Below are positions 18,698 to 57,174 of a DNA stretch of 64,000 nucleotides, one piece after another. Below the pieces are notes generated by a model. That model had not been told where the DNA came from. It made no database searches and saw only the letters and a list, made by a program, of their open reading frames with translations. The position numbers were made by a program, and so were the translations under genes. Source of the DNA: a bacterium (lineage in GTDB: Bacteria; JADJOY01); NCBI GenBank assembly GCA_046331705.1, contig JAXLQJ010000028.1, positions 1 through 64,000 of the forward strand, given 5' to 3'. How positions within the stretch are numbered: the stretch's first letter is position 1; the number at the start of each line of letters is the position of its first letter.

Positions 18698-20731
18698 CTA
18701 GCCCGGCGCGTCCAGGTCGTATTGGGTGAAGTGGCGCAGCACCGTGAGCGTCGGCGGCGGGCGTTCGGGGCCATACGCCCAGCGCCAGAAGGCATGGCCG
18801 AGCTTGCGATAACGCCACGCCGCGTCGACGTTGAGAACGCGCTCGCCGGCGGCGGGTAGCCTCAGCTCGAAGACGTCCTCGATCGTGCCGCCCGGCGCCA
18901 GCTCGCGGTCGACGGTGACGCTCGCCGCGTCCCAGATTCGATAGTGCTCGATGGGGCGGCCGTCCGGACCGAGCATCCTGCCCCCGAGCGTGTGGGTGCC
19001 CTCGAGCAGCTCGCCGTCGGGGCCCGTCCCGCCGCTCGCGAAGAGCGTGCTCCCGTCGCGGCCGGTCACGCGCACCTCGAGCCAGGTCTCCTGGATGTCG
19101 AGCGACGATGCAGGAAACGGATGCGTCATGCGGGTGCTCGCCGTCCGCACCGCGAGACGGGCGCGTTCACCGTCGATCGCCGTCAGCTCGGAATCGAGCG
19201 TCATGTAGAAGAAGCTGCCGAGCCGCTCGGGTCCGAGCCGGAAGTCCCGGCGCCCGCCCTTCGCGTAGAGATCCTCGAGAGCGCGCACGAAGAGCTCGCT
19301 TCGGCTCCAGCGCGCGTTGAGCTCGGCGAAGCGCGGCCACCCGAGGATCTCGAAGCTGGCGACGTTCGAGCCCGGGAAGAAATGATTACGCCCTCGTCCC
19401 TCGAGGCCGAGATCCGAGGAGCGCTCCATGTGGCAATCCACGCAGCTCGGCCCCGGCGCGATCGTGCGCAGCGCCCCGTGGTGGCAAGACAGGCAGAAGC
19501 CGTCCTCTCGAATCGCCGGCGGCGTGAACGCGCGGCCGTGCGCGCGGGGATTGAGGCTCAACAGGAACCGCTCCGCGGACGCGATCGGCCCGCCGCGCGC
19601 CTCGGCGTCGCGAAACGGCGCGAGCAACGCTCGGTCGAGCGTCACCGTGTAGCGCGAGCGCTGCGAGTCGAGCACCTGGGCGTCCGTCACCGAGTGACAG
19701 AACACACACGGCAACGCGTCGCGCTCGCCGGCGCGGCCGCGGGGCGCGCCCTCGGCGAGCAACGCCGCCGGCAGATGACAGCCCGCGCAGACTCCCTCGT
19801 TCGCCGCACCGAGCTCGCTGTCGACGAGATCGAGAACGCGTTGCATGTGACCCGGTTGGTACGACACGCCGTGCAGCGAATGCCGCGCCTCGTCGAGCAC
19901 TCCGCCATGGCAGCCATCGCCGTCGCCGCAGCTGCGCGAGATGTCCATCCACGCGGCGCCCACGCCGCGCGCGGCGGGCGCCCGTTCGTCGCTCGCGCGG
20001 CGTTCGAACGGAGCGGTCGCGAGATGGAAGTCGACCGAGGGAAATCGCTGCCGATCGGTCGCGCGGCGCGCCGCGACGTCCACCGCGAGCCCCACACCCG
20101 CGAAGAGCGCCAAGCCGAGGGCGACCCGCCGCGACACCGCTCGCCAACCCAGCGCGCGGCGCGCTGGCGCCACCAGCACGATCCAACCGACCACGCTCGC
20201 GCCCACCCCGAGCACGGTGTGGAAATCGAAGATCATGCGCTCGGTCGGCCGGCCCCTCGCCGGCAAGATCAGCGCTCCCAGCGACGCCGTGAGCGTCCAC
20301 ACCACCAGCGTCCCCACCTGCTTGAGCACCGTGCGCGGCCTCCGCACGCCGCCGAGCAGCGGGATCGCGCGCAGCACCAGGAACACCACCAGCACGAAGA
20401 GCGGGATCAGGATCTGCCCCGCCACCCGGTTGCTGACCTCGATCGGCAGATGCTTGAGCGCGAACACGCGCAGCAGCGCGAGAAAGAACACCGCCACGAA
20501 CGCGAGCCCCGTGAACGGCCCGAGCCCCGGGACCTCCTGGCGAAGGCGTGCGAAGACGTTGCGCACCAACGTCACGGTGACGAAGGTCGCGAGGAGCGGA
20601 TGCAGGATGAGGTTCAGCCGAAACGCGGGCCCCCACGAGCGCGACACCAGGTTGAGGAAGCCCGAGAGCACCACCAGCACGAAGAGCAGCACGTGGCGCG
20701 CCGGGTCGGATCGCGGAGCGTCGGGAGGCAT
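18698..20731 (-). CDS. Membrane-anchored pentaheme c-type cytochrome (TM domain + c554-like heme domain + C-terminal beta domain)
   Basis: About 7 TM helices with LHP and FHT His residues; heme motifs CGDGDGCH, CAGCH, CVFCH, CLSCH, CVDCH; C-terminal THPFP...WLEVRV...SG...WRYRK. Confidence 0.8.
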   Translation of the reverse strand: MPPDAPRSDPARHVLLFVLVVLSGFLNLVSRSWGPAFRLNLILHPLLATFVTVTLVRNVFARLRQEVPGLGPFTGLAFVAVFFLALLRVFALKHLPIEVSNRVAGQILIPLFVLVVFLVLRAIPLLGGVRRPRTVLKQVGTLVVWTLTASLGALILPARGRPTERMIFDFHTVLGVGASVVGWIVLVAPARRALGWRAVSRRVALGLALFAGVGLAVDVAARRATDRQRFPSVDFHLATAPFERRASDERAPAARGVGAAWMDISRSCGDGDGCHGGVLDEARHSLHGVSYQPGHMQRVLDLVDSELGAANEGVCAGCHLPAALLAEGAPRGRAGERDALPCVFCHSVTDAQVLDSQRSRYTVTLDRALLAPFRDAEARGGPIASAERFLLSLNPRAHGRAFTPPAIREDGFCLSCHHGALRTIAPGPSCVDCHMERSSDLGLEGRGRNHFFPGSNVASFEILGWPRFAELNARWSRSELFVRALEDLYAKGGRRDFRLGPERLGSFFYMTLDSELTAIDGERARLAVRTASTRMTHPFPASSLDIQETWLEVRVTGRDGSTLFASGGTGPDGELLEGTHTLGGRMLGPDGRPIEHYRIWDAASVTVDRELAPGGTIEDVFELRLPAAGERVLNVDAAWRYRKLGHAFWRWAYGPERPPPTLTVLRHFTQYDLDAPG

Positions 20732-20752
20732 GGGCGTGCTCGGGGACCGGTG

Positions 20753-22213
20753 TCAGTCCACCCGCGCGGCTTCGCGCGGCGGATCGAAGCGATGACTGGG
20801 CAACGCGGGACCGGGCTTCTCCGCGATGCCGATGCGCGCCATGTGGCACGCGGTGCATCCCGTGGTGCCGCGGCAGGCGTCGATTCTCCGCTGCCCGGCG
20901 TGCTCGGGCCTCTGCAAGACTTGGCGCGCGAGATCCGCGGGAACGGTCGGCGGGAACTCGGTGAAGCGATGACAACCGAGACAGCGCGCATCGGCGGCGT
21001 CCGCGCTCGCCACCCCGAAGTCCTCGGCGTGCTCGCGCCACACGCCCACCATCATCATGAGCGAGAGCGGTGTGCGCAGATACCACCTCGGCAACGACAG
21101 CTCGAGGGCGCCGTCGCCGACCCCCTCGCCGTGGGCGCGCAGCCGGTGGCAGGCGAGGCAGGAGATCCCCTCGCGCAGGGCCTCGGGCGCGACCAATCCG
21201 CCACCGGGCGCGATCTCGCCGGAGAAGAGCGAGATCGGATCGTGGCACGCGCCGCACACGCGCGCGGCGCGAATCCCGAAGGTCCGCGCGGTTTGCTCGA
21301 GCGCGACCCGATACCCATCGCCGACGCTCGCGCGATGCGGCGAAGCGAGCCACTCCGAGTAGACGCTCGGGTGGCACGCGCGGTGCCCACACGCGTTCGA
21401 TCCACCGAGCGCCTCCGCGCGATAGGTGCCGCCGGTGGAGGTGCGCGCCAGGCTCGGCGCGAAGTCGGCGACGCGCGCGCGCACCCACGGTGCGCCATCC
21501 CCGTCCTCGAACCAGAGCTCGCGCGTCGACGATGCGTCGAGCGCCACCAGCATGCACCCGACCGTCGCGGCCACCACCAGCCCGCGCCAGCGAACGCCGC
21601 TCGCACTGGGCGCGGGCGCGGACGCCGGCGCGACGACAGCGGTCCGGCGCACAGCCCATACGACGTGCAGGACCACCAGCGGCGCTCCCAGCGCCAGCGC
21701 CACCCGGTGGACCGGAAGCGCCGGGCCACCCACGGTGAGGAGCGAGACGTAGGCCCCGACCCAGAACGCGAGCTTGACGGCGAGCCAGCCGACGCGCGCG
21801 ACCCAGCGCTCGGCGACGCCGAGCCCTGCGACGTCGCGCCGCACGTGCGTGAGCAGATACGGCAGCACGAGCGCCAGATACGGCCGGCCGCCGAGCTGAT
21901 GAAGAACGCGCAGGTTGAAGCTCGCCTGCGTGTAACGAGGCAAGAAAGCGACGACCGTGCCGCTCACCGCCATCGCGCTCGTGGTCGCCACCAGCAGGAA
22001 ACGCCCCAGCGCACGGGCCCGCGGTCGCTCGTTCGCCAGCAACCACCACGAGCCCCCGAACACTCCGAGGTGCAAGGGCGCATCGAGGATCGAGTACGAG
22101 CCGAGCGCGTAGAGCGCGACCAGGTAGAAGCCGTCGAGCGCGGTGAACGCGAAGAGCTGCCGGAAGATCGCCGCGCGCACCCGCGCCCCGCGGCCGGTCG
22201 CCGGCGTGCTCAT
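20753..22213 (-). CDS. Membrane-anchored pentaheme c-type cytochrome, short form lacking the C-terminal domain
   Basis: Start ATG 22213 overlaps the upstream stop; TM domain with H-x17-H and H-x13-H; CGHRACH, CGACH, CLACH, CLGCH, CTACH; ends soon after SHRF. Confidence 0.8.
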   Translation of the reverse strand: MSTPATGRGARVRAAIFRQLFAFTALDGFYLVALYALGSYSILDAPLHLGVFGGSWWLLANERPRARALGRFLLVATTSAMAVSGTVVAFLPRYTQASFNLRVLHQLGGRPYLALVLPYLLTHVRRDVAGLGVAERWVARVGWLAVKLAFWVGAYVSLLTVGGPALPVHRVALALGAPLVVLHVVWAVRRTAVVAPASAPAPSASGVRWRGLVVAATVGCMLVALDASSTRELWFEDGDGAPWVRARVADFAPSLARTSTGGTYRAEALGGSNACGHRACHPSVYSEWLASPHRASVGDGYRVALEQTARTFGIRAARVCGACHDPISLFSGEIAPGGGLVAPEALREGISCLACHRLRAHGEGVGDGALELSLPRWYLRTPLSLMMMVGVWREHAEDFGVASADAADARCLGCHRFTEFPPTVPADLARQVLQRPEHAGQRRIDACRGTTGCTACHMARIGIAEKPGPALPSHRFDPPREAARVD

Positions 22214-23682
22214 GTGCCGCTCGCGCGCCCGCCTGCTTCGTCCGGGCGCAGCTCGTAGATACCGCAGCGGCAGGTGTAGAAGACGCGATCGCCGGCGACC
22301 GAGAAGGCGCGAACGCCGACCGGCACGTCGGTGACGATGCGACCCGCGGCCGGCGCATCGAGCGGCAGCAGCGCGATGCTGGGCAGGACGGGGTTTCCCA
22401 CCAGGATTCGGTCGTGCGCCGCATCGACCACGACGTAACGCGAGCCGAACGGCACCCGATGGCTCTCGCGCTGCTCGAGGGTGGCGACGTCGACGCGCAG
22501 CACGCGCCCCGTGGGGCTCACCATCCATAGCGCGTCGCGCTTGGCGTCGTACGCCACGTCCGCGACCGCGGGAGCGTCGCGGCGCCGGATCACGCGCCCG
22601 TCGGGGTCGAGGATGGCGATCTCCCACCCCGCGGCCACGGCGATCCCGCTCGCGGTGGCCGCCAAGTGCGGCAGCCCGCCAGTCGGCATGGGTACCCGCG
22701 TGAGCACGCCGCCGTCGGGCTGGTGCACGGTGAGCACCGACTCTTCCTGCCCTCGCAACCCCGCGCCGAAGAAGCGGCCCGTGGTGGGCTCGCGCTCGAA
22801 CCAGGTCGGCGCGTAGTCGAGGCCGAACGATCCGATGCGCTCGAGCGGCTCGGTGCGAAACGCCTCGACCATTCCCGTCATCAGATCGATCGGCTCGTCG
22901 CCACGCATCGCGCCGGCGGCCCACACGGTGCCATCCGGGCCCACGACCATGCTGATCGGCACGTGTTGCCGTAGCGGCACGCTCTGGACCGCACCGCTCG
23001 CCAACTCGGCGCGCACGATCAGTCCCGGCGTATCGGTGCCGCCCAACCGCACCTCCGTCCACACGCAGGCATCGCCCCGCGAATCGCAGTGCAGGCTGTA
23101 GCGCGCCCCCGAGTCACGCGGAACCACCGCCTGGCCGCGGCCGCAAAACGCCGGAAACGGCCGATCGCGGATGCCCGGGTGGTAGGTCACCCAGGTGGTG
23201 ACGGCGATCGCCAGCAGCAGGTGGTTGAGCGCCAGCATCCGCAGCGCGATGCGCCGCGGCGCGAGCGCGGCGGTGAGACAGACGACGAGCGCCGGCGCGA
23301 GCGCCAGCCAGGCAGGCGCGAGCACGTGGGGGACCGCCATCAGGCTCGCCTGGGCGCCGCGCACCGCGTGCTGCTCCCAGCGCGTGCCCACGGCCTCCGC
23401 CGCGAGCAGCACCCAGGCGAGCGTCGCGACGACCACACCGAGGGTGGCTCGAGCCGCGCTGCCGCGAATCGCGTCGACCCGGCGATCGATCCCAGCGAGG
23501 AGCCGCGCAATCCCCAGCACGACTCGGAGCAGCACTCCGAGCAGCGCCGCCGAGCACGCCGCGTGGACCCACAGCACGCCGATCCAACGCAAGCCCACGC
23601 CTGAGCCGAGCGAGATCGCCGCGCAGAGCACGATCGCCGCCGTCACCGAGCAGGCGAACGCCGTGCGCGGGCGCGCGGTCAC
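22210..23682 (-). CDS. Membrane-anchored beta-propeller protein, paralog 4
   Basis: About 5 TM helices, then blades (DVAYDAKRDALWMV, VVDAAHDRILVG); ends YTCRCGIYEL. Start at GTG 23682 is an estimate. Confidence 0.6.
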   Translation of the reverse strand: MTARPRTAFACSVTAAIVLCAAISLGSGVGLRWIGVLWVHAACSAALLGVLLRVVLGIARLLAGIDRRVDAIRGSAARATLGVVVATLAWVLLAAEAVGTRWEQHAVRGAQASLMAVPHVLAPAWLALAPALVVCLTAALAPRRIALRMLALNHLLLAIAVTTWVTYHPGIRDRPFPAFCGRGQAVVPRDSGARYSLHCDSRGDACVWTEVRLGGTDTPGLIVRAELASGAVQSVPLRQHVPISMVVGPDGTVWAAGAMRGDEPIDLMTGMVEAFRTEPLERIGSFGLDYAPTWFEREPTTGRFFGAGLRGQEESVLTVHQPDGGVLTRVPMPTGGLPHLAATASGIAVAAGWEIAILDPDGRVIRRRDAPAVADVAYDAKRDALWMVSPTGRVLRVDVATLEQRESHRVPFGSRYVVVDAAHDRILVGNPVLPSIALLPLDAPAAGRIVTDVPVGVRAFSVAGDRVFYTCRCGIYELRPDEAGGRASGT

Positions 23683-24040
23683 AAATGCGTTCAGCGCGCG
23701 GTACGCAGCGCGCGCTCGCGCGGCGCGAAGCCGGGGCGGCGCGGAGGGAAGCCGAGCGGGCTCGGGATGAGACGACACGTGTCGCGGTGCGAAGCGAAGT
23801 CCGGCAGCGGCGATCGCGGGGAGGGTGGCACGCCGGCGCGCGCCCGCTTGGCATCGCACCGGACGAAGCCCACGACAAGCCCCTGGACGCCGCGCGCTGG
23901 GATCGAGCACGGGCGCCGACGCGCCACCACCACCCGATCCCCGCCGAACGCGAGGCGCCGCGCGCGAGCGCTTCTTGCGCCGCGGGCCTGCGTTCGGCAA
24001 CGCTAGACCCTCCCCGCCGTCGCTCGCCGGACACACGCCC

Positions 24041-26128
24041 GTGACTGATTCGGATCGGACCACGCCCGACGTGGCTGCGGCTGCTCGGGTGGCGGCACTG
24101 GGCGCGCTCACCGCGGCCATCGCCTACGCCGCGCATCGCATCCAGAGCTCCCAATTCCCCCTCGACATGCTCACGGTCGAGATGATCGTGCTGCCGGTCT
24201 TCGGCCTGGCACTCGGCCTGGTGCGCGGCGAGCGCTGGTTCCCTGCGGCCCGCGAGACGCGCCGCGCGCTCGCGATCGCCATCGTCTTCCTGGGAGCCAT
24301 GGCGATGAACCGGGGCATCTCGCTCCACTACTTCGTGAGCGAGGCGTACTACCCGTATCCCAAGCCGGCCTACGCGCCGTGGAGGCTCGCGGCGTTCGTG
24401 GTCTCGTGGATCGCCGAGGGCGGGGTCTTCGCCTGGCTCGGACACCGCTGGCGGAACGAGGTCGCGCGGCCCGCGGCGCTCGGCCTCGGCATGCTCGGTG
24501 CGGCTGCGGGGCTGGTGGTGGCCGCGCGAGCCATCTTCGCGTTCGGCGCCCAGCCCGTGCTGGTGGGCGCGGTCGCGCTGGCGATGCTGCTCGGGCTCGG
24601 CACCTGGCTCGCGGGGCTCGTCCCACTCGCCGGTGCAGCGCTGCTGGTGCTCAGCGCGCGCACCCCGTACTCGTTCCTGACCTGGCGCGCGTTGCCGCAG
24701 GACTACACGCTCCTCGAGCAGCAGTGGACGCCCTACTACTTCCTCAACTTCATCTCGCTCCAGGACGACCGCTGTCTGGGCGGCATCTACAGCTACCTGA
24801 TGCTGTGGCAGGTGTGCGACGAGCCCTCGCTGCTGCAGCGCGAGTTCCGCTATTTCCACGGCACCGTCGGCGAAGGCAAACGTTCGATGCTCGGCATCGG
24901 GCGCGTCGACGGCACCACGGCGCTCACGCTCGCGCCGCCGGAGAAGCCGCTCGAGCGCGTGACCTTGGTCGAGGTCGACCCCGTCGTCGCCGAGCGGATG
25001 AACGGCGTGCTGGCGCGCTACAACGGCGATCTCGCCCACCAGCCCCAGCACCGCATCGTCTCCGCCGATTGGCGCAGCTTCCTGGAGCACGACGACCAGC
25101 GCTACGACGTGCTCGCACTCGACGGGTTGGGGATCGCGCTCTACACGATCCCGCTCACCAACTTTCCCCACGAGGGCTGGCTCTTCACCCGCGAGGCGTT
25201 TCGGACGATCTTCGACCGGCGGCTCGAAGACGACGGCGTGATGATCATCAACTGGGGCAGCACCCGTGAGCACGAGGTCTACCCGCTGGTGGCGAACCTG
25301 CCCGACGACGTCGCCAAGGCCGCCTTCTGGATCACGTTCTCCGAGTATCCGTTCTCGGGATTGCCGCTCCTTCTCATCGCTGCGTCGCGCGATCACGCCA
25401 GGATCGACGCGCTGCGCGCGGCCCTCGACGGCGTCCCGCCCTTCAAGGAAGTGCCGATCCCCGCCGACCTCGCCGCGTATCGGTTCACCGACGACTCGCC
25501 GCTGGTGCAGCGCGCCGTGTATCGCGACGGGCTGTTCCTCGGCTATCCGCTGGCTATCGCGGTCGCCGTGGCCGCGCTGACGTTGGCGCGGCGCTCGCGA
25601 CGCAAGGGCCTCGTGAGCGGGCTCGCTTCCGGCGGGATCGCGCTCGCCGGCGCGCTCGCCACCCTCGGCCTCGCGTGGATCGTCTCGCGGCACGCGCGCA
25701 TCGCCGTGCCCTCGGGCGCTGCCCTGGGCGCGCTGCTCCTCGCGGGCGCGTGGCTCGTCGGTGCCGGCGGCGCCGCCATCCTGGCGCGGACGCGCTGGAT
25801 CCGGACCGCGGTGCTGACCAGCGCGCTCGCCGCGACGGCGGCGGTGCTCGCGCTGCGCGCGGAAGCGGAGCCGCGGGCAATCGCGATCGTGGCCAGCGCC
25901 GTGATCGTGGGCGCCGCCGCCGGTGCGCTCGCCACCGCGAGCGCACGCGCTGCCGCCGATCGCGTCCGCGCCATCGCGCTCTACCTGATGGCGGCGACGC
26001 TCGGGCTGGTGATCTACCAGCAGCTCTTGCTGCGCGTGGGGTTCGCGTCCACCGCGAGCGCCTGGTGCGCGCTCACGATCGGGCTGGCGTGCGCGCTGGC
26101 GCTGCGCCGTCCCGCCGCGAGCCGCTGA
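24041..26128 (+). CDS. Membrane protein with central spermidine-synthase-like class I SAM-fold domain
   Basis: TM helices on both sides of VTLVEVDPVV, ADWRSFL...RYDVLALD, LFTREAF...RLEDDGV, FTDDSP. Start at GTG 24041 is an estimate. Confidence 0.7.
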   Translation: MTDSDRTTPDVAAAARVAALGALTAAIAYAAHRIQSSQFPLDMLTVEMIVLPVFGLALGLVRGERWFPAARETRRALAIAIVFLGAMAMNRGISLHYFVSEAYYPYPKPAYAPWRLAAFVVSWIAEGGVFAWLGHRWRNEVARPAALGLGMLGAAAGLVVAARAIFAFGAQPVLVGAVALAMLLGLGTWLAGLVPLAGAALLVLSARTPYSFLTWRALPQDYTLLEQQWTPYYFLNFISLQDDRCLGGIYSYLMLWQVCDEPSLLQREFRYFHGTVGEGKRSMLGIGRVDGTTALTLAPPEKPLERVTLVEVDPVVAERMNGVLARYNGDLAHQPQHRIVSADWRSFLEHDDQRYDVLALDGLGIALYTIPLTNFPHEGWLFTREAFRTIFDRRLEDDGVMIINWGSTREHEVYPLVANLPDDVAKAAFWITFSEYPFSGLPLLLIAASRDHARIDALRAALDGVPPFKEVPIPADLAAYRFTDDSPLVQRAVYRDGLFLGYPLAIAVAVAALTLARRSRRKGLVSGLASGGIALAGALATLGLAWIVSRHARIAVPSGAALGALLLAGAWLVGAGGAAILARTRWIRTAVLTSALAATAAVLALRAEAEPRAIAIVASAVIVGAAAGALATASARAAADRVRAIALYLMAATLGLVIYQQLLLRVGFASTASAWCALTIGLACALALRRPAASR

Positions 26129-27806
26129 GCCAGCGGTCGGCGTCGATCTCGAGGATCCCGAGCGCCGAGCCCACCCAGATCCGCGCGCCGTCGGGCGAGA
26201 GCGCCAGCGAGCCCGGCTTCTTCCCGACGCCCAGCCGCGCGATCACCTTGCCGCTTCCGTAGTCGGTCGCTTCGAGCACGCCCGTTCCCCAACCGAGCCC
26301 GTAGACGATCCGGCGCGCGGGATCGAACGCCAGGTTGCGACAGCCGGCGCGCGGCCCCTCCAGGGTGCGGCGAACCTCCCAGGTGGCGGCGTCGATCTCG
26401 TGGATCACGTCGCCATAGCCCTCGGGCACCAGCACGATGCCGAGGTTCGCGTCGAGGAGCATGTCGGTCGAGCCCATCGGCAAGATCAGGCTGCGCACCA
26501 CCGCGAGCCGTTCGCGATCGATGTCCGCGAGCGCGTAGTGGTCGCGCGCGTCGACGGGACCGAGGAGCGCCACCAGGCGATCACGACGCGCGTCGTGGAG
26601 CAGCTTGAGCCCGCCACCGTGCAAGCGCGTGACGCCCGCTTGGTGCAGATCGAGCGAGCGGCCGAGCGTCCAGGTGGCGCGCTGCCACTCGGTGATCACC
26701 GCGCGCTCGTAGGCGAGGATGTAGAACCGCTCGTGAGCAGCGTCGACCCAGAACGAGATCGCGTCGCCCACCGGCCCCTTGCCGAAGAGGTCGGCGCTGG
26801 ACGCGCGACGAAACGGCGCGGACGCGAAGAAGTTCACCTCGGCGCGCGGCGCGTCCACGCCCACCAACATGCCGGTCGTGGGATCGAGCTCGGTGGAGCG
26901 CATGCCGCCCTCGATCGTGAGCAGCTCGGCCGCGGCACCCGCCGCCAGCGGCAGCCGCATCACCCCCGAGGCCCAGCCGGAGGTGGGGCCGTACGAGAGA
27001 AAGAGCGCCTGGCCGACGGGGTCGTGGACCAGCTGGCGAGGGAAGAGCCGCTCGTAGGCCGAGCGCTCGTCGCTCGACGGGTAGAGCCGCCGCACGAAAT
27101 CGAGCTTCGCCAGCGTCTCGGGAGCACCGCGATGACCGGGATAAACACCGAGGAAGAAGAGCGTGATGAGCAAGAGTGGCGCGAACCCGGCAAGTGAACG
27201 GGCGAAGCCGCGCGGCGCATCCACCAGCGGCAGCAGTACCAGCCACGCCGCCATGAGCGGCACCGGCCCGAGATTGGGGACGTGCGCCAGGCTGATGCTG
27301 AGCGCGACGAAGTAGCCCACGGAGACCGCAAGGATCGCGAATGGCGTCTTACGGCGGGTGCGCGGCCACACGACCAGCGCCACCAGCGCCAGCACGATCG
27401 CCGCCACCAAGCCGACGAATACCGGATCGATGCGTACCAGGAATTCGAGGAGCTTCGGCAGTCGCGTCCAATCGAGCGGTAGCCAGCGGAACGAGCGCTC
27501 CTTGGTGGGCTCCATCTCGAAGGCGAGGCCCGGGATCACCCACCACGCCATCGTCGCAGCACCCACCGTGAGCACGCTGCTCAGAACGCGGCGCGGCCAA
27601 CGCTGTGCGCGATGACCGAACATCCACACCAGCTCGAGCAGCAACAGCAGCGACGCGATCGCGATCATGCGCGCCAGGAGCTCGCGCTCCGCGAATCCAC
27701 CGTCGAGGCCGACCAGGAGCGTCTGGATGCCGACGTAGCCCAGGATCGTGAACGCGATCGCGTCGAGCACCACGATGCCGAAAAAACGCCACGGGTGCTG
27801 GTTCAT
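26073..27806 (-). CDS. Membrane-anchored beta-propeller protein, paralog 5
   Basis: About 7 TM helices, then blades (RNLAFDPARRIVY, VGKKPGSLALSPDGARIWVGS); ATG 27806 overlaps the upstream stop. Confidence 0.68.
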   Translation of the reverse strand: MNQHPWRFFGIVVLDAIAFTILGYVGIQTLLVGLDGGFAERELLARMIAIASLLLLLELVWMFGHRAQRWPRRVLSSVLTVGAATMAWWVIPGLAFEMEPTKERSFRWLPLDWTRLPKLLEFLVRIDPVFVGLVAAIVLALVALVVWPRTRRKTPFAILAVSVGYFVALSISLAHVPNLGPVPLMAAWLVLLPLVDAPRGFARSLAGFAPLLLITLFFLGVYPGHRGAPETLAKLDFVRRLYPSSDERSAYERLFPRQLVHDPVGQALFLSYGPTSGWASGVMRLPLAAGAAAELLTIEGGMRSTELDPTTGMLVGVDAPRAEVNFFASAPFRRASSADLFGKGPVGDAISFWVDAAHERFYILAYERAVITEWQRATWTLGRSLDLHQAGVTRLHGGGLKLLHDARRDRLVALLGPVDARDHYALADIDRERLAVVRSLILPMGSTDMLLDANLGIVLVPEGYGDVIHEIDAATWEVRRTLEGPRAGCRNLAFDPARRIVYGLGWGTGVLEATDYGSGKVIARLGVGKKPGSLALSPDGARIWVGSALGILEIDADRWLSGSRRDGAAPARTPARS

Positions 27807-29284
27807 GGCGCCGCCCCCAGCGACGGCTCGATCTCGTAGACGCCGCATCCGGAGGCGACCCAAACGTGTCCGGACTCGGGGTCCACGATGGCGTTCCGAG
27901 CCAGCCGGCCCACGTGCGCCGCGGGCGGCGATCGCCAATCGCCGGCGCCGAACCACGCGAGCAAGGCACCGGAGGTGAACGAGAGCGTGTACCAGCGCTG
28001 ATCCACGGGGTTCACCAGCACCAGCTGCGGCATCGCGTGGAACGTCATCGCCGGAACGTGCGTGCCGCTCTTCAGATTCACGCGTTCCAGTTGCCAGCGC
28101 ACCGGCGAGAGCAGGTACGCGAGCTCACGCTCGGGATCGACGACGGCCGAGGCGGCGAGCCAAAACGGCAGCTTCCGCTCGCGAAAGGCGAGCGAGTCGA
28201 GGTCGAGGGAGATGAGCGTGCCCTCGAGCGCCGGAACCCACAGCATGCGCCCGCCATCGGTGAAGCTGGGAATGCCAACGCGCCGACCCACCGCGATCGT
28301 CTGGCCGTCTTGCTCGCTCTCGGCGCTGAAACGAGCGAGCGAGTGGAAGTCGCCGGCATCGAGCACCTCGATCACCACGTCGTGATAGAGCGCGTCACCC
28401 TCCGCCGGCCAGAAGAGCACGAAGAGCTTGCCGTCGCGGTGCACGATGCCGTGCGCCTCGCCACCGAGGCGCACCAACCTCCGGAACGCGAGCCCCGCGG
28501 AGATGTCGAGCTCCGCGAGGCAATAGACGCCGTTTCCCGAGGTGAGCGCGAAGAGACGGCGGCCCGCGGAGTCGAGCGCCAGCCGATCCGGGTAGAGCGT
28601 GCACGTCTCGTTCGCCGGCAAGGCCACGTTCGTCACGCTGCCGTCGCGCGCGATTGCCGTGAGCTGTCCGCCCAGCGCCGTGGTCCAGAAAGCACTCTGG
28701 TGCGAGACGAAGATGCGCCCATCGAGTGGATCCCGCGCCACGTCGTACGGGTTGCTGAAGCGCAGCCCGGGCGAGGCGTCGATCTGGCTTCGCGACAGCA
28801 CCACGTGCGTGCGCGGGTTCGTGCCCTCACCCGGGCAACGCGACGCGAGCGGCGGCACGCGAATGCCCATCACCACGGCGAACGCGATCCACGCGAATCC
28901 CATCAACGACGGCAGCAACGCGAAGCGCCGCGCGCGCACCATTCGCAAGAGCGCCACCGCCACCATGCACGCAGCAGCCGCCGCCACACCCACGCGTGTG
29001 TAGGCGTAGAACCAGATCCAGTAGAAGAGCGTGGGCAGGATCAGCGCGAGCTTCGCGAGCGCGCCGAGCACACGGAGCCACCAGCGACCACGAACGCGCG
29101 CGACGAAGCCTCGGACCTCGGGGATCCGCTCGAGGCGCACGGACACCAGCGCCAGCACGGCGAACACGGCCAACGCCAGCAGCGCGCGGTGCGGCCCGTA
29201 GATCTCGATCGGAAAGCGAATGATCTCCTGCGGCAGCACCCAGAAGACCAAGAGCGCGAAACGCCGGAGCGTAGTCACGAGCAT
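27803..29284 (-). CDS. Membrane-anchored beta-propeller protein, paralog 6
   Basis: N-terminal TM helices; NPYDVARDPLDGRIFVS, LALDSAGRRLFA, VGRLARNAIVDPESGHVWVASGCGV. Confidence 0.68.
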   Translation of the reverse strand: MLVTTLRRFALLVFWVLPQEIIRFPIEIYGPHRALLALAVFAVLALVSVRLERIPEVRGFVARVRGRWWLRVLGALAKLALILPTLFYWIWFYAYTRVGVAAAAACMVAVALLRMVRARRFALLPSLMGFAWIAFAVVMGIRVPPLASRCPGEGTNPRTHVVLSRSQIDASPGLRFSNPYDVARDPLDGRIFVSHQSAFWTTALGGQLTAIARDGSVTNVALPANETCTLYPDRLALDSAGRRLFALTSGNGVYCLAELDISAGLAFRRLVRLGGEAHGIVHRDGKLFVLFWPAEGDALYHDVVIEVLDAGDFHSLARFSAESEQDGQTIAVGRRVGIPSFTDGGRMLWVPALEGTLISLDLDSLAFRERKLPFWLAASAVVDPERELAYLLSPVRWQLERVNLKSGTHVPAMTFHAMPQLVLVNPVDQRWYTLSFTSGALLAWFGAGDWRSPPAAHVGRLARNAIVDPESGHVWVASGCGVYEIEPSLGAAP

Positions 29285-31245
29285 CCCGGCGCTCCCGGCG
29301 AAGGATCGATGCGTCGCAGGGGCTCGCTGCCTGGCGCGATCCACACCTGACCGTCGCGCGCCGCCACGGCCATGAGCGGCGCATCCGTGGCGCAACGCGT
29401 GAGCACGCGTTTGGGCTGGCGATCGACCAGCTCGATCACCCACAGCCCGCGCTCGTGAGCGGCGACGTAGAGCTTGTCGCCATCGACGGCGAGGCCGACG
29501 GGATACGTGATGCCGAGACGCATGCGACGACCGAGGCGCTCGGGCTCGTCGGGATTCGACACGTCGAGCGCGGTCACGGCACCGAGATCGGCGACGTAGA
29601 GCGTGTGGCCTTGGGCCGCGAACGCGAGCGGTTCGTCGACGGTATCGGGGATCTGACCCAGATCGCGCCAGCTCGGTTCGCCCTGCGCATCGAAGCGCAC
29701 GAAGCCGAGGCCGTGGTGGAGCGCCGCCACCCACACCGCGTCACCGGCGCGAATCGCGCGCCACGCGTAGCCGGGCCGATTGAAGAGATGCGTGCGCGCG
29801 AGGCGGCCCGACTCGTCGCGTCGCAACACCGACACCGGGCCTTCGCCCCCCACGGTGATGATCCGCTCGCCGAGCATCTCGGTGCGGCGCACGTGCTGCT
29901 CGATCTCGAAGGTCTGCACGAGCCGCGGCGCCGCGGGATCGGACACATCCCACTCGGTGAGGCCGCCCGTGACTTCGGAAACGAAGGCGCGACCGTCGCG
30001 CACCATCACGTGCTGGGCGGTGCCACGGGTGGGGATGTTCGAGAGCTTTGAGGGCGTGCCGTCCGCGGCGAGGGCGTAGAGATCGACACCGCCGCTCCCC
30101 TTGGCGACGGCCGCGTGACCGGGAAAGAGCTCGATGAAGTGCGAGAAGCCTCGTGGCGAGAATTCGCCCAGGAGACGCGCGCTCGCGGGGTTCACGACGT
30201 CGTAGACCGCGAAGCCACGAGCGCCGCGGGTCACGACCATCCGCCCCTTCTCACACGACACGTGCACCGGCGTGCCCGCGACGTCGATGCGACTCACGAG
30301 CTTGGGCGCATCGGGATCGAGGAGATCCACGACGAAGACGCCACTGGCGTAGTCGGCGACACACAACCGGCTCAGGGCCGGATCCACGCTCACCCCGCGG
30401 ATGTGAACCCCGGCGGGGAGCGGCACGAGGTTCGGCGGAACCGGCCCGCCATCGGTGCGCGCGATACCGAGCCCGAGATTCCCCATGCCGAAGTAGACGT
30501 ACGGGCGATTCACCGCGACGTCGAAGGGCGGCGGCTCGGGCAATCCCGCCGCACCTGGCGGAACCTCGGCGATGCGCCGGTTGGTGAGTGCCGCACCGCT
30601 CGCGAGATCGATCTGGATCACACCGTAGCCACCCACGCTCACCCAACCGGACTCACCATCGATGGCCGCGCCTTGCCCCACACCGGGCGTGACCTGGCTG
30701 CCGACGAGCTTGGGATGGGCTGGATCACTCACGTCGGCGACGAAGAAACCGCCAGCCCGCGCCGCCACCAGCGCGCGATCGCCGTAGACGGCCATGTCGT
30801 AGCCGTAGATCAGGTGATCGGGCTCGCTCTTCGGCGACAGGTAGCGGCGCACCTTGGGCCGCATCCGGTCCGAGAGATCGAGGACTCCCATGCCCTTGTC
30901 GCCGGCGGTGGTGAAGCCCCAACCCGGACGCACGATCAGGCGGTGCAGGAACTGGGCGAGCACCGTCGAGTACACGGGGCGGTACGTGGCCGTTCGATCC
31001 AGCACGAACACCGACAGCGTCGTGCCCTGAAACGCCATCGCATGCGTCGGGTCGACGACGACGGCGTCCGTGGTGATCTCGTCCCACGGCTCGCGCACCA
31101 CGTCGTGGAAGCGCAGGTGGCGCCACACGTTAGGCCCGAGGTCCGCGAGCGTGGCGATCACGAAGGCCAGCACCACGACGCCGACCCCCTGCGCGATCCG
31201 GCGCAGCCCACGTCGCAGGCGCGAGTGCCGCGCGGCGGCGGTCAC
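29275..31245 (-). CDS. LVIVD-repeat protein with N-terminal membrane anchor
   Basis: Repeats such as GFFVADVSDPAHPKLVGS, GVFVVDLLDPDAPKLVS, GFAVYDVVNPAS, GLTEWDVSDPAAPRLV, ALDVSNPDEP; GTGA overlap with the upstream cytochrome gene. Confidence 0.78.
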   Translation of the reverse strand: MTAAARHSRLRRGLRRIAQGVGVVVLAFVIATLADLGPNVWRHLRFHDVVREPWDEITTDAVVVDPTHAMAFQGTTLSVFVLDRTATYRPVYSTVLAQFLHRLIVRPGWGFTTAGDKGMGVLDLSDRMRPKVRRYLSPKSEPDHLIYGYDMAVYGDRALVAARAGGFFVADVSDPAHPKLVGSQVTPGVGQGAAIDGESGWVSVGGYGVIQIDLASGAALTNRRIAEVPPGAAGLPEPPPFDVAVNRPYVYFGMGNLGLGIARTDGGPVPPNLVPLPAGVHIRGVSVDPALSRLCVADYASGVFVVDLLDPDAPKLVSRIDVAGTPVHVSCEKGRMVVTRGARGFAVYDVVNPASARLLGEFSPRGFSHFIELFPGHAAVAKGSGGVDLYALAADGTPSKLSNIPTRGTAQHVMVRDGRAFVSEVTGGLTEWDVSDPAAPRLVQTFEIEQHVRRTEMLGERIITVGGEGPVSVLRRDESGRLARTHLFNRPGYAWRAIRAGDAVWVAALHHGLGFVRFDAQGEPSWRDLGQIPDTVDEPLAFAAQGHTLYVADLGAVTALDVSNPDEPERLGRRMRLGITYPVGLAVDGDKLYVAAHERGLWVIELVDRQPKRVLTRCATDAPLMAVAARDGQVWIAPGSEPLRRIDPSPGAPGCS

Positions 31246-33338
31246 GTCGGGCCCCCGGCTTCCGCCCGCGCCAGCTCCTCGATGGGCAGCGGCACGGCGG
31301 CGGCGCCGAGGACCTCGCGGGCGAGCCACGGCGCCAGCGCGCGATGCCGCCAGCGCGCCTCGACGCGAAACGGCGGCCGCGCATCGGCCGGAACCGCGAA
31401 CGCGAATCGTTCCTCGTGGATCATTCCCGGCTGGATGCGCGGACCCGGAACCGCCGCCGGCGCGCCGCTCGCCAACCACACGTCGACCGGATCGCCAGGC
31501 CGCGGTCGCGGCACGCCGAGACGCCGCGTCTCGACGTCGAGCTCGTCGCGCTCACCCGCGCTGCCGCTCGCGAGGATCGTGCGCCCAGCGCCGTCGTTGA
31601 CGGTCAGCGCGAGCCAGGTCTCCGCCGACGTCGCGACGAGCGCCGGCAGCGCGTGGCCCAGCCGCCGCGAGCCGGTGCGGACCGCGATCTCGGCATTCGC
31701 GCCGGGCCTGAGCCGCTCGACGCCATCGATCGTGACATCGAGCAGCGGCAAGCCTCGGTAGTGGCGCTGATAGGCGCGCACCTGGGGATCGCGCATCACC
31801 CGAAGATACGTGAGGAGGCTCGGGCGAACCTCGAGCGTCCCGTCGAGCCAGCCACGCGCCGCCTCGGCCGCCCGCGCGAGGTCCGGATCGCCGGCGCTCG
31901 GATCGGGCACCAGCCGCGGCAACGACGTGCTGCGCCCCAGCGTGTGGTGATCCCACGGCGGATGCGCCCAATCCAGCTCGAACATGTGCATATGGCATTC
32001 GCGACAACCGATGCCTTCCGCGGCGAGTCCGCTCGCCTGCCACGTGGCATAGGTGTCGAGGCCGTGCGCGCCCGCCGCGCCCTCCTGATGGCACGGCGCG
32101 CAGAGCTCGGCCTGCTTGCGGGGGGGGCGCATGTAGTTGGCGCGATGTGGCTTCACCCAGCGATAGACGAGATCGATCTCCAGCGGGTGCGTGAGCGCGC
32201 CGCTGCCCGCGAGATCCGGCAGGTAGACCTCGGGCTCGCGAAGCGTGAAGCGCCCATCGCCGAGCGGCGTGGGCGCCGAGTCGAGCGCATGGCACGCCAC
32301 GCACGAAACGCCCTCGTCGCTCAGCCGGACGCTCACGGCGGCGTCGCCGGCGCCACGCTCACCGAGCACCGCTCGCACGGGATCGTGGCAGCGCCCGCAG
32401 CTCGCCGCCGCTCCCGCGCCGGCGCGCGCCGTCAGTCGCGCGACGGCGTACGTGTACGGTCGATTCGTGGCGGAGTAACGGTGCGCCGACACCGCCCATT
32501 CCTGGTAGCTCTCGAGGTGGCACTCGGGCAGACCGCATCCCGCCGAAGGGATCGTGAGCGAGGTGCGCGGCGAGGCATCGGGCGCGGCGCTCGGCGTGGG
32601 GGCGAGCGCTCGCGCCGCCAGCAAGCGGCCGCCGAGCGCCGTGAGCCCGACGGGGACCCCGATCGCCAGCGCGAGCAGATACGCGAACCCCGGCCGGCGC
32701 GCGAGCCACGCGCCCCAGCGGCGCGCCGTCGCGGCGCACACCAGCGCCAGCAGCAGCGCCGAGGCGAGATGGACGTGGTTGAGGATGTTGGTGATCGTGC
32801 CCAGCGACTTGAAGACGCCCAGGTAAAACCCGCTCGCCAGCGCCATCAGCGCCGCGGGCCAGCCGATCGCCACCGCCGTCGCGACCCAGCGCGGCGACCG
32901 CCGCGACTGGCGAGCACGAAAGAAGAGCGCCAGCGGCACCAACAGCGAGAGCCACGCGGCGACCGCGCTCTCCATCGGCACGTAGCCGGCGCTGAAGATC
33001 AGGAACGGCACGGTCGCGAGCGCGAGCGCCAACGCGAGCACCACGAAGCCCGCGTGGGTCCAGCCGATGCCCCCCACGACCGTGACGAGCAGGAAGAGCA
33101 CCAGCGCCACGATCCCCGCGCGAACGTGAACGTGGAGAGCGCCCAAGAGCGCCAGATCCAGCGCGCCTCGCGCAGCCATGCCGACACCGGTGACGAGCAA
33201 TGCCGCCGCCAGCCCGGCCACCGCGGTGCCCAACCCAGCAGCCACGGCTCGGGGCCGCTTCGGTGCGCCGACGCTCAACGCCCGCTCGGCTGCCGACGCG
33301 ACACGACGCCCCCCGCGTGCTTCACCAGCACCACGCAA
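31242..33338 (-). CDS. Membrane-anchored pentaheme c-type cytochrome (start uncertain)
   Basis: TM domain with HVH motifs; CGLPECH, CGRCH, CVACH, CAPCH, CRECH; YQEWAVSAH; C-terminal GHALP...TWLALTV...ASG. Confidence 0.8.
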   Translation of the reverse strand: MRGAGEARGGRRVASAAERALSVGAPKRPRAVAAGLGTAVAGLAAALLVTGVGMAARGALDLALLGALHVHVRAGIVALVLFLLVTVVGGIGWTHAGFVVLALALALATVPFLIFSAGYVPMESAVAAWLSLLVPLALFFRARQSRRSPRWVATAVAIGWPAALMALASGFYLGVFKSLGTITNILNHVHLASALLLALVCAATARRWGAWLARRPGFAYLLALAIGVPVGLTALGGRLLAARALAPTPSAAPDASPRTSLTIPSAGCGLPECHLESYQEWAVSAHRYSATNRPYTYAVARLTARAGAGAAASCGRCHDPVRAVLGERGAGDAAVSVRLSDEGVSCVACHALDSAPTPLGDGRFTLREPEVYLPDLAGSGALTHPLEIDLVYRWVKPHRANYMRPPRKQAELCAPCHQEGAAGAHGLDTYATWQASGLAAEGIGCRECHMHMFELDWAHPPWDHHTLGRSTSLPRLVPDPSAGDPDLARAAEAARGWLDGTLEVRPSLLTYLRVMRDPQVRAYQRHYRGLPLLDVTIDGVERLRPGANAEIAVRTGSRRLGHALPALVATSAETWLALTVNDGAGRTILASGSAGERDELDVETRRLGVPRPRPGDPVDVWLASGAPAAVPGPRIQPGMIHEERFAFAVPADARPPFRVEARWRHRALAPWLAREVLGAAAVPLPIEELARAEAGGPT

Positions 33339-33817: not shown

Positions 33818-35260
33818 ATGCGCGTACTGCTGGTCAATCTCGCCGCCGGCGACACCGACTTCATCGACAAAGGTCGGGTCTGGCGCAGCATCTACCGGCG
33901 GCCCTATCTCGGTCTCCAGTACCTCTCGGCGTACCTGAAGCAGCACGGCCACCGCGTCGATCTCGTCGACTGTCAGGTCGAGCCGCTGGGAGCGAGCGCG
34001 CTCGCGGAGCGCGCGCGGCGCGGCGGCTATGGGCTGGTGGGCTTCTTCGCGATCTACGTGAATCGCGAGCAACTCCTCGCGTGCGTCGGCGAGATCCGCG
34101 ATCGCGTGGGCGTTCCCGTGGTGGTCGGCGGCCCGGACTGCTTCAACGACGAGGCATACCTGCGCGCCGGCGTCGACTACGTGGTGCGCGGCGAAGGCGA
34201 GGTCACGCTCCTCGAGCTGGTCGAGCGCATCGACGCCGGCAAACCGGTGGACGACGTGCTCGGCCTCTCGCGGCTCGAGCGTGGCGAGCTGCTCCGCCAT
34301 CCCGACCGCCCGTTCATCGCCGACGTGGATTCACTGCCGTTTCCCGATCGTTCGCACTATCCGATCCACGTGTGGCACGACTACATGGACTTCAACATGC
34401 GGAAGCCCTTCGCGACGCTGATCACGTCGCGCGGTTGTCCGTATGGGTGTGAGTTCTGCGACTCGCCGAGCCTCTGGCAACGCAAGGTTCGACAGCGCTC
34501 GCCGGCGAACGTGCTCGCGGAGGTCGACGAGCTGGTACGCGAGCACGGCGTCCGCTACCTGCTCTTCTCGGACGACATCTTCGGCATCTCGTTCGAGTGG
34601 CAGAAGGAGTTCTGCGAGGCGCTCGCGGCGCGCCGCTACGATCTCGGCTACTTCTGCCTGATCCACCCGCTCGTCTACGGCCAGCACACCGAGGAGCGCA
34701 TGGAGCTGCTGGCGCGTTCGGGCTGCAGGACCTTCCACATCGGCGTGCAATCGGCGAGCGAGAACGTGCTGCGCTCGAGCGGCCGCTTCCCGGGCGAGCT
34801 TCGCCACCACCGCCCCATCGTCGAGCTGGCGCGGCGCCACGGCATCCTCTCGTTCACCACGTTCATCCATGGGCTGCCGGGCGATACCCGCGAGGGTTTC
34901 GCCGAGTCGCGTGCCTTCGTGAAGAAGATGTCGCCGGATTACGCGCTCTTCCTGCCGCTCAAGGTGTTCGCGGGGTCGACGCTCGAGGGCAAGCTCACGC
35001 GTGGGGAGCGCGAGCTGCCCGGCTTCACCTGGGAGGAGCTGGTACGCGAGTGCCGGCGCTCGGAGCTCGAGTTCTATCGCCACCCCGGTCGCTCGCTTCG
35101 GCTCTTCGCGTACGTGCTGCGGCACAATCCGGCGTGGCTGGTCACGCGCGGCTGGTACGCCGTGTACATGATCGTGCGCACGCTGTGGATCGGGCTCTTG
35201 CCCGCGGCCCGCCCCCACGATCGCGATTCCGCGACCCTTCCCGCGCTCAGCTCCGCTTGA
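33818..35260 (+). CDS. Cobalamin-binding (class B) radical SAM protein
   Basis: PYLGLQYLSAYLK, VVVGGP, VRGEGE (B12-binding domain); TSRGCPYGCEFC; FSDDIF; FIHGLPGDT. Start ATG 33818. Confidence 0.88.
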   Translation: MRVLLVNLAAGDTDFIDKGRVWRSIYRRPYLGLQYLSAYLKQHGHRVDLVDCQVEPLGASALAERARRGGYGLVGFFAIYVNREQLLACVGEIRDRVGVPVVVGGPDCFNDEAYLRAGVDYVVRGEGEVTLLELVERIDAGKPVDDVLGLSRLERGELLRHPDRPFIADVDSLPFPDRSHYPIHVWHDYMDFNMRKPFATLITSRGCPYGCEFCDSPSLWQRKVRQRSPANVLAEVDELVREHGVRYLLFSDDIFGISFEWQKEFCEALAARRYDLGYFCLIHPLVYGQHTEERMELLARSGCRTFHIGVQSASENVLRSSGRFPGELRHHRPIVELARRHGILSFTTFIHGLPGDTREGFAESRAFVKKMSPDYALFLPLKVFAGSTLEGKLTRGERELPGFTWEELVRECRRSELEFYRHPGRSLRLFAYVLRHNPAWLVTRGWYAVYMIVRTLWIGLLPAARPHDRDSATLPALSSA

Positions 35261-35270
35261 CCGACCTCGC

Positions 35271-36800: not shown

Positions 36801-36807
36801 CGAACCG

Positions 36808-40358: not shown

Positions 40359-40429
40359 CGTGCTCCTCCGGCGTGCTAGGGTCGCGAGCGAGGCGCTAGT
40401 GTAGCCCGCCACCGATACGCGAGAACCCC

Positions 40430-41815: not shown

Positions 41816-41855
41816 AGGAGCGCGGCGCGCGGGCGCTCGACCTCGAAAGAAAGGC

Positions 41856-50781: not shown

Positions 50782-50882
50782 CGCGACGATCGGCGACGCG
50801 CGATTCGAGTCGGGCGCAGACCTCGGCCGCGTCGTCGGCGCGGCCGGGTCTGCGTTCCGGAGGCTTCCGACGGAACCCCGGC

Positions 50883-52868: not shown

Positions 52869-53002
52869 GGGTCCCCCTGGATCGACGCGGGTCGACACCC
52901 GCCGTTGGCGCGATCCCTCACTCTACCGACGTCGCGCCAGGCGCGCCACGGAACGGGAAACGGATGCGCGCGGCCCGCGGAACAACCTGGGTGAGGCCAG
53001 CC

Positions 53003-54748
53003 TCAGCGGCCGCGCTCGCCCAGCCAGCTGGCGAGGTCGACGCGGAAGATGCCCTCCTGGCTGCCCGCCCACAGCACGTCGTCGACCGGATCGAGCATCA
53101 GCGATTGCGCCTTCTTGCCGATGGGAATGCGCTTCACGATCCGCGTGGGATCGCCGTACTCGAACGCCCAGAGCTCACCCGGCAAGAACGCCAGCGCGTA
53201 GAAGAGCTCGCGCTTGGGGTCGAAGAGCAGGTTCCGCGAGTTGAGCGGCCCGCGGAACGAGCGCACCGGCCTGAGCGGTGCCAGCGAGTACTCGTAGAAA
53301 CGATCCGAGAAGAAGCTCGCGGCGACCAGCGTGCGCTTGCCGGGGATGGTGATGAAGTCGAGCCCGCCCTCGGGCAACACTTGCTTGTCCACGACCGTCA
53401 GCGTCGCGGGATCCACCTCGAGAAGCAGGAACCGATCGTGGCGATCGGTCATGCCCAGCTCGGCGTAGAGGTGCCCCGTGGTGGGATCGTGAAGGACCTT
53501 GAGCAATCCGCTGCGGAAGCGCGTGAGCCCGAGATCGCGCATCGAGAGCTGGCGCACGAACGCCTGGGTGTCGCGCTCGTACTCGGCGAGGATCGGCAGC
53601 TCGTGGAAGGTGATGAAGATCCGCTCGGGAGTGACCGCGAACGACCACGGCGCGATCCGCCCCTGCTCGAGCACGTTCACCTGCCGCACGATGCGCAGCG
53701 GGTCGCCCTCGAAGACCAGGAAGTTCCCCTTGTCCCAGTCCATGCTGAGGATCTCGTCCTGCGCGGGGTTCGACCACAGGTAGCGCGCCAGCCCCGGGAA
53801 CTCGAGGACGCGCGCCTCGTGGGTCGCGAGGTCCACGCGCACCAGGCCCGAGCTCGGGCCGTAGCACGTGAACAGGAAGCGGCGATCGTGTGAGAGCACG
53901 AACTCGCGCATGTACTGCAGATCGAAGTCCGGCGCGGCACCGGGACGCGGATAGACGTGGGTGATGGCGGGATCGTCGACCTTCGGATGCGCGGCACTGC
54001 CCCACGGCAGGAAGCCCACGTAGATCCACAGGATCTGCGACGAGAGCGCGGTCGCGAAGGTGGCCCGCATCGCCCAGCGCAGGTAGCCGAGCGGGATGGC
54101 GATCGCGCCGATCACGAGCGGCACCACGAACGCGATGACGTAGGCCTTCATCTTGCTCGAGCCGAGCTCGAACACGATGAACCAACCGCTCAGCCCGGCC
54201 CAGCCGAGCAGCACCGCGCAGGCCAGCGCGGCCATCCCCCGCGAGCGTCGCGCCAGCGCGAGCGCTAGCAGCGCGGTGACCGCCAGCGTCGCCACCAGCC
54301 CGCCTGGCGCGATGCGAGCCATCAGCAGCAAGTTGAGGGCGATCTTGTGCCACTCGAGCGGGATCCACACGTTCGTGTAGCCCTTGGTGACGCGGCTCAG
54401 CACCAAGAGCGCGGGACCGCTCAGGATGGCGGCGATCCCGAGCAGCTGATCGATCCACGTCTCACGCGAGATCGCCCCCAGCCGACCGTGCGTGACGTAG
54501 AAGTGGCCCATCAGCACGGCGATCGCGCCCAGGAACACGGCCGCGCCGAGCGGTCGCGAGACGACGCCGTCGATGCCGAGCAGCGCGTATTCCACGCCTT
54601 TGTAGGCCAGCACCACGAAGAGCGCCGCGTCGCTCGCGAGCATCGCCGCCGACGACACGCGCGAACGCCGCGGCAGCGCCGCGCAGCCACCCGATGCGGC
54701 AGACGCGCCAGTCTGGGGTCGCGTCTCTTGCTCGTGCTGCGAGCTCAT
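53003..54748 (-). CDS. Membrane-anchored beta-propeller protein, paralog 8 (closest to 26073-27806)
   Basis: TM domain then YGPSSG, GLLKVLHD, RNLLFDPKRELFY, IGKKAQSL; ATG 54748 overlaps the upstream stop. Confidence 0.7.
   Translation of the reverse strand: MSSQHEQETRPQTGASAASGGCAALPRRSRVSSAAMLASDAALFVVLAYKGVEYALLGIDGVVSRPLGAAVFLGAIAVLMGHFYVTHGRLGAISRETWIDQLLGIAAILSGPALLVLSRVTKGYTNVWIPLEWHKIALNLLLMARIAPGGLVATLAVTALLALALARRSRGMAALACAVLLGWAGLSGWFIVFELGSSKMKAYVIAFVVPLVIGAIAIPLGYLRWAMRATFATALSSQILWIYVGFLPWGSAAHPKVDDPAITHVYPRPGAAPDFDLQYMREFVLSHDRRFLFTCYGPSSGLVRVDLATHEARVLEFPGLARYLWSNPAQDEILSMDWDKGNFLVFEGDPLRIVRQVNVLEQGRIAPWSFAVTPERIFITFHELPILAEYERDTQAFVRQLSMRDLGLTRFRSGLLKVLHDPTTGHLYAELGMTDRHDRFLLLEVDPATLTVVDKQVLPEGGLDFITIPGKRTLVAASFFSDRFYEYSLAPLRPVRSFRGPLNSRNLLFDPKRELFYALAFLPGELWAFEYGDPTRIVKRIPIGKKAQSLMLDPVDDVLWAGSQEGIFRVDLASWLGERGR

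Positions 54749-57174: not shown

Follow-up and report, generated by a model that had tools for sequence, protein, structure and literature searches.

Pentaheme c-type cytochromes of the PHC family join a five-heme domain to an Ig-like beta-sandwich, as is the case for the c552 of Thermochromatium tepidum (5ZE8), Geobacter ExtKL and Gsu2801, the sPHC and lPHC of cable bacteria (PMC11976967) and PtdA (bioRxiv 2023.11.21.568154). The proteins described there are soluble and periplasmic, some of them being fused to a truncated hemoglobin. MccSep (ExtKL of Geobacter sulfurreducens), a soluble tetramer, is a polysulfide reductase in which hemes 1, 3, 4 and 5 are bis-His ligated and heme 2 is His/Cys ligated, with the active site at heme 2 beside an Ig loop bearing a selenocysteine (bioRxiv 2025.11.18.688581). 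As for membrane domains, DUF4405 (PF14358) consists of a helix pair repeated twice with four central His, and one purified DUF4405 protein bound heme b (PMC11334425). CbcL of G. sulfurreducens combines a diheme cytochrome b and a multiheme cytochrome c in a single chain at the inner membrane, with nine c hemes and six helices, the His being arranged 1+1+1+2 on helices 1, 2, 3 and 5 (bioRxiv 2021.04.15.440034).

The family analysed here, whose soluble half belongs to the same fold, would work as a PHC module to which a heme-b wire of the DUF4405 type has been attached. Compared with the described PHC proteins, it has a multi-helix membrane domain with His pairs ahead of the hemes, a first heme motif that is often CX4CH or CX5CH, and 21 copies in the source genome. 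With MccSep, it has in common five c hemes, four non-motif His and an Ig stem with a GH-x-(F/I)P loop; unlike that soluble tetramer, it is fused to the membrane, and membership of MccSep is ruled out by the missing Sec/Cys at the U325 position and, in the long forms, the missing conserved heme-2 Cys. Membership of CbcL is ruled out by the heme count (five vs. nine) and the His layout (2+2), the PHC fold and the non-respiratory context being further differences. Both halves are already known. In the main texts searched, which were mostly those of freely available papers, no description of the fusion, its His variants or its context was found; proteins of this kind may be listed in supplementary tables of the papers on MccSep, on cable bacteria and on DUF4405.

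Family genes of the window and their membrane half

The window, i.e. the whole stretch of 64,000 nucleotides that was analysed, carries six family members, namely the five genes of a preliminary description and one more ending at 62920 (Table 1). Each of the five has a CX4CH or CX5CH motif first, then four CxxCH, which gives five hemes per chain. The preliminary description had reported exactly spaced transmembrane His pairs in genes 37779 and 20753 despite low overall similarity; the peptides were located at both genes, and the two proteins are 22-24% identical. It had also assigned only the first His of each pair to 18698, 31242 and 54745, and the second His is indeed missing in each of them. 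The pattern is not due to chance, since shuffling of the N-terminal parts restored it in only 2 of 2000 cases for 37779 and in none of 2000 for 20753; a strict His filter, passed by 11 of the 21 family members, was passed by 0 of the 560 other multi-helix membrane ORFs of the genome. The window also holds, at 43373-45403(-), a soluble, signal-anchored five-heme relative of PHC type without the membrane His domain, which is set among FG-GAP and beta-helix surface-protein genes and is distant from the fused family in the tree.

Table 1. Family members and neighbouring genes in the window
Position	Strand	Feature	Remarks
18698..20731	-	Two-His long form	Multi-helix membrane domain, H44/H171; five heme-c motifs, heme 4-5 loop deleted; Ig-like C-terminal domain; ATG 21 bases from the end of 20753
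20753..22213	-	Four-His short form	H105-x17-H123 and H169-x13-H183; five heme-c motifs; extra invariant H438 and C447; without Ig-like domain
22210..23682	-	Membrane-anchored predicted beta-propeller	Stop overlaps 20753 start (ATGA); no Pfam match
24089..26128	+	Membrane protein, weak spermidine-synthase-like domain	Homologues found next to family members in a second lineage
26073..29284 (27803-29284, 26073-27806)	-	Two membrane-anchored predicted beta-propellers	Downstream of 31242, one coupled run
29275..31245	-	LVIVD-repeat beta-propeller	Start overlaps 31242 stop (GTGA)
31242..33233	-	Two-His long form	H36/H155; start uncertain (33233-33338)
33818..35260	+	B12-binding radical SAM enzyme	First gene of the run ending in 37779
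35271..36800	+	Membrane-anchored predicted beta-propeller	Homologue precedes the 37779 orthologue in a Nitrospirae-labelled genome
36808..37782	+	Membrane-anchored diheme cytochrome c	Stop overlaps 37779 start (ATGA); candidate redox partner
37779..39881	+	Four-His long form	700 aa; seven predicted membrane helices; H64-x17-H82 and H178-x13-H192; CX4CH + 4 CxxCH; Ig-like domain
53003..54658	-	Membrane-anchored predicted beta-propeller	Downstream of 54745; closely homologous genes adjoin family members on contigs C6 and C26, and likewise in the Nitrospirae-labelled genome
54745..57174	-	Two-His long form	H46/H313, H313 placed after an internal repeat of membrane helices; heme 4-5 loop deleted
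57319..58884	-	Membrane-anchored predicted beta-propeller	Upstream of 54745
62920..64000, running on to C28 64959	-	Sixth family member	Four His, H95/H113/H159/H173; absent from the preliminary description

In both predicted models (mean pLDDT of 74.7 for 37779 and of 74.8 for the membrane part of 20753), a core of four helices precedes an anchor helix, with zero to four extra helices between the two halves of the core. The charge bias of 37779 points to a cytoplasmic N-terminus, with the first His of both pairs close to the periplasmic side, so that the two-His forms would keep the heme adjoining the c-type domain. We infer that two b hemes are bound, one by the first and third His on the periplasm side, the other by the second and fourth His on the cytoplasm side.

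At the profile level, the Pfam cut-off is reached by no family membrane domain of the source genome: PF14358 matched one of 20 members, at E 0.11 and below the cut-off, and a distant fusion (P0083) scored 20.5 vs. a cut-off of 26.7. The membrane profile of the family, for its part, finds a true DUF4405 protein, P0077 (47.7 bits vs. 26.7), at E 5e-9, and in HHalign (72.6%, E 3e-5) the His columns of both repeats align. The family differs from DUF4405 in its x17 first-pair spacing, in the extra helices between the repeats, and in being fused to a c-type multiheme domain rather than lying beside flavinylation genes.

Concerning structural neighbours, VIA placed the membrane part of the full 37779 model closest to HyaC (Z 10.3, rmsd 4.4, 141 aligned), followed by CybB (cytochrome b561, Z 10.2), STEAP4 (9.9) and FdnI (9.4), these scores (8.7-10.3 overall) lying within the range of common helical bundles; the isolated membrane domain gave a best Z of 8.5, tied with unrelated helices. 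PepSY/MsrQ-type structures were not among the matches listed in either VIA search, and a PDB sequence search with the membrane alignment returned nothing under E 0.2. HyaC, FdnI and CybB are separate subunits, unlike the fused family, and their His arrangement differs from that found here. In FdnI and HyaC it is 1+1+2, whereas the layout of the family is 2+2 on two helices, as in DUF4405.

The His conservation announced as a check in the preliminary description was found in homologues recruited by the heme domain alone: a Nitrospirae-labelled genome holds six copies found in this way, five with four His and one with two. Taken together with the DUF4405 profile link and the topology, this conservation supports well the earlier proposal of two b hemes on transmembrane His pairs with one-heme variants, whereas the role of electron conduit that went with it proved too narrow.

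The pentaheme half

The soluble half has the pentaheme c552 fold of the PHC/MccSep family. Its best PDB sequence match is 5ZE8 (E 1.5e-17), spanning both the heme and the Ig parts; Foldseek gave the same structure at E 5.7e-10 as the sole match under 0.001, and VIA gave Z 22.9, rmsd 3.4 and 331 aligned. The C-terminal Ig-like beta-sandwich is present in the long forms and lacking in short forms such as 20753. Genes for cytochrome c maturation were found in the genome.

The five heme motifs, H272, H385 and H465 are invariant in all 53 membrane-fused members, and H559 is kept in 48 of the 48 members having the Ig domain; other kept residues are D567 (44/53), H619 (37/53) and N278 (34/53). As only four non-motif His are available to the five c hemes, one heme would lack a His ligand; by analogy with MccSep, this would be heme 2. 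N278, D567 and H619 are candidate pocket residues, although H619 could instead be a heme ligand; as a fifth His ligand it would close heme 2 and turn the chain into a pure wire. Neither Sec nor Cys was found at the position of MccSep U325 in any of 86 motifs, the residue being Leu565 in 37779 and the frames being open at this site, and no conserved non-motif Cys was seen in the long forms when the distal heme-2 Cys of MccSep was looked for. In the short forms, an extra His and an extra Cys (C447 in 20753) of the heme 4-5 loop are invariant in 10 of 10.

Copies, His classes and gene neighbourhood

The heme-part profile gave 25 matches in the source genome, corresponding to 21 distinct full-length genes, three duplicates on a repeated contig and one fragment. 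These members are 21-27% identical to 37779; by His class, 15 carry the x17 and x13 pairs, one carries x17 twice and five are two-His forms. The five kin genomes hold 14-23 matches each, the phylum sample comprising six genomes. Contig C63 repeats the C7 cluster (about 64000-81000) almost letter for letter in the proteins compared, and is probably an assembly duplicate.

Of 25 metagenome loci obtained from heme-domain patterns, one was a self-match and 21 were without the membrane domain of the family, while both His pairs were present in all three with a multi-helix membrane domain. The profile of the membrane domain picked up 278 clusters (50% identity, E up to 0.001). Among the best 150 of these 278 matches, at least 111 clusters are pentaheme fusions, and 36 of the 39 unfused clusters are at most 336 aa long. 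Within the 111 fused clusters of the matches listed, 81 have four His, 23 have only the first of each pair, four lack the fourth His only and three lack the second only. Since this list contains the own members of the source genome and its kin, and since the profile is biased towards the first His of each pair, the absence of the opposite His loss cannot be inferred from it. Other searches returned less: the membrane profile matched two of 395 non-kin genomes, one of them weakly (8 candidates scored per genome); word-indexed protein searches, an insensitive method, gave 2, 7 and 2 matches; a contig search with P0005 found no locus beyond that of P0005 itself; and every match in the ESM Atlas was under 0.9 and serves as a lead only. 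P0029 (1262 aa) was rejected as a fusion, as it looks like a read-through into an unrelated hydrolase. At L117:4856-8299(+), a frame of 1148 aa holds a propeller-like region, one further CxxCH and the pentaheme domain; this region matches the membrane-propeller profile weakly (E 2e-7), and the frame is possibly a natural propeller-PHC fusion.

In the tree, of which only a quick version was made, most two-His forms fall in one clade (support 98) within the group having a shortened heme 4-5 loop, whereas 31242 stands apart from it, apparently through a separate loss of the second His of its pairs, and the two-His gene of the Nitrospirae-labelled genome is separate again. Such scattered positions suggest that the second His of the pairs was likely lost two or three times. 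Among the matches listed, the short heme 4-5 loop occurs in 15 of 23 two-His and in 7 of 75 four-His clusters, at a P of 2e-7 that is overstated because the clusters are kin.

In the source genome, each of the three short forms (four His, Ig domain absent) is immediately followed by a two-His long form, and eight further short/long pairs were found across four kin genomes, one being cut by a contig end, one having a split long gene and one having three His per chain. In this last pair (L037:1872-5275, genome G005), each chain has three of the four His; the cytoplasm-side heme could be shared between the chains, or the pair could be decaying. Four two-His genes are without an adjoining short partner (31242, 54745, the Nitrospirae-labelled gene and one kin orthologue), which argues against an obligate short/long pair. 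A complex prediction for 20753 (12-486) and 18698 (1-460, the Ig domain omitted for size) scored 0.01 vs. a mark of 0.32 and counts neither way.

As a whole, the window forms an island whose genes encode glycosyltransferases, UbiA, radical SAM enzymes, asparagine-synthase-like, GDSL and DegT proteins, and membrane beta-propellers. A membrane propeller lies within 10 kb of 13 of 22 family hits vs. 5.6% of long ORFs, an enrichment inflated by the 11 neighbours used to seed the profile and borne out at no more than 4 of 10 loci. B12-binding radical SAM genes lie near 8 of 22 hits vs. 15%, a weak link in a genome with 75 such genes. The same genome has 28 membrane-anchored beta-propeller genes, which together with these 75 make an unusually large tailoring expansion. 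At 2333-16306(+), one same-strand run comprises UbiA, three radical SAM, one glycosyltransferase, two asparagine-synthase-like and three membrane-propeller genes; no family cytochrome lies within it.

In the Nitrospirae-labelled genome, four of the six copies have like neighbours and the other two lie among housekeeping genes; one same-strand run there holds a glycosyltransferase, a methyltransferase, a propeller, two family members, a second propeller and five radical SAM genes. The context common to the two lineages may be one transferred island. Directly upstream of the family, an FG-GAP/ASPIC propeller was present in two of the three distant metagenome loci. Spermidine-synthase-like membrane proteins occur twice in the source genome (24089-26128(+) and L003:9658-11982), each at most 10 kb away from a family member; in the Nitrospirae-labelled genome, such proteins lie beside the family three times.

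No molybdoenzyme, NrfD or porin-cytochrome was seen among the 103 neighbouring genes scanned, and PF02621 (futalosine menaquinone family) was not found in the genome. Separate large multiheme clusters, unlinked to the family, lie at C48 13690-17866 (32 + 24 CxxCH), C19 67000-89600 and C22 11500-20400. As for RNA, nine runs contained 5-8% of the words; in the four that were mapped, 37779 and 31242 were covered solely by short identical stretches (150-256 bases, depth 2-7), which do not show transcription.

Possible functions

The reading that we favour, with a probability of roughly 45%, is that these proteins are single-chain, membrane-wired redox enzymes acting on a putative periplasmic substrate, most likely in cell-envelope tailoring. 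A conduit alone appears too narrow, because the PHC/MccSep fold has a catalytic member and because the gene context is biosynthetic rather than respiratory. Electrons would be exchanged between the predicted b hemes and the membrane (quinone pool) or the cytoplasm, and the c hemes would relay them to heme 2, which would lie beside the Ig stem and is likely catalytic, although the flow could run either way. Electrons might reach the two-His forms, which would keep the periplasm-side heme, from quinol, whose oxidation by these forms the preliminary description had proposed, or laterally from a four-His partner. The Ig stem may shape the substrate pocket, the neighbouring beta-propellers may be partners, and many paralogues may mean many substrates. 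Counting against a tailoring enzyme are the absence of the Sec/Cys of MccSep and the diheme cytochrome c coupled to 37779, which suits an electron carrier.

That same coupling speaks for respiratory conduits from quinol to the periplasm, the view of the preliminary description, which would work like CbcL: the b hemes would oxidise quinol, the c hemes would pass the electrons on to carriers in the periplasm or to acceptors outside the cell, and the paralogues would be set to different potentials. CbcL, itself a fusion of b and c domains, is known to have this role (bioRxiv 2021.04.15.440034), and relatives of the PHC family have been proposed as carriers in cable bacteria and ptd clusters (PMC11976967; bioRxiv 2023.11.21.568154); the genome has several other multiheme clusters, and H619 may complete a bis-His ligation. 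We nevertheless regard these conduits as somewhat unlikely: no respiratory catalytic subunit or porin was found among the 103 neighbours, the large multiheme clusters sit on other contigs, 21 paralogues at 21-27% identity beside glycan-tailoring genes are unlike a respiratory set, and the His layout and domain order of CbcL differ. The family could also consist of membrane-bound reductases of sulfur or nitrogen oxyanions with the electron donor fused in, acting on polysulfide or selenite as MccSep-like enzymes, or on nitrite or hydroxylamine at an open heme. The fold common to the family and MccSep is in keeping with this, as is the invariant C447 of the short forms, which belongs to the heme 4-5 loop, a region in which 5ZE8 also carries a Cys. 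NF040886 (ExtKL) is matched by 4 of the 21 members, but at 29 bits vs. a cut-off of 250; with Sec/Cys at the U325 position in 0 of 86, long forms devoid of a conserved extra Cys and no sulfur genes among the neighbours scanned, such reductases seem improbable.

The membrane His themselves might not be heme-b ligands, serving another metal or a structural role, in which case the proteins would be membrane-anchored pentaheme cytochromes. At least one His is missing in 30 of the 111 fused clusters (among the matches listed), and the membrane fold scores within the range of common bundles. In 23 of these 30 clusters, however, the loss concerns the pair of one side, as expected for one cofactor site; the His align in the DUF4405 profile link, and heme-b cytochromes are the best matches of the membrane part of the full model, which makes a role outside heme b very improbable.

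Returning to tailoring enzymes, a bolder version, which we hold to be rather unlikely as a whole, is that of an undescribed class of self-contained transmembrane oxidoreductases: bacteria whose genomes carry large islands for envelope biosynthesis would employ b-heme/pentaheme chains by the dozen, each equipped with a substrate pocket and a beta-propeller partner of its own, for redox reactions of glycans or lipids beyond the cytoplasm, and in some cases a short four-His chain would be the transmembrane carrier and a long two-His chain would bear the open catalytic heme.

Multiheme cytochromes are usually read as respiratory. Here, a fold with one known enzyme (MccSep) and one orphan structure (5ZE8) is fused to its own predicted heme-b supply, has been expanded to about 20 copies per genome within one small uncultured lineage, and lies among envelope-tailoring genes. 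The natural series of four-, three- and two-His forms is a ready set on the reduction of a membrane heme wire to one heme. If the enzyme reading is true, heme counts in such genomes would overstate respiratory capacity, and a periplasmic biosynthetic redox chemistry that has gone unrecognised would exist.
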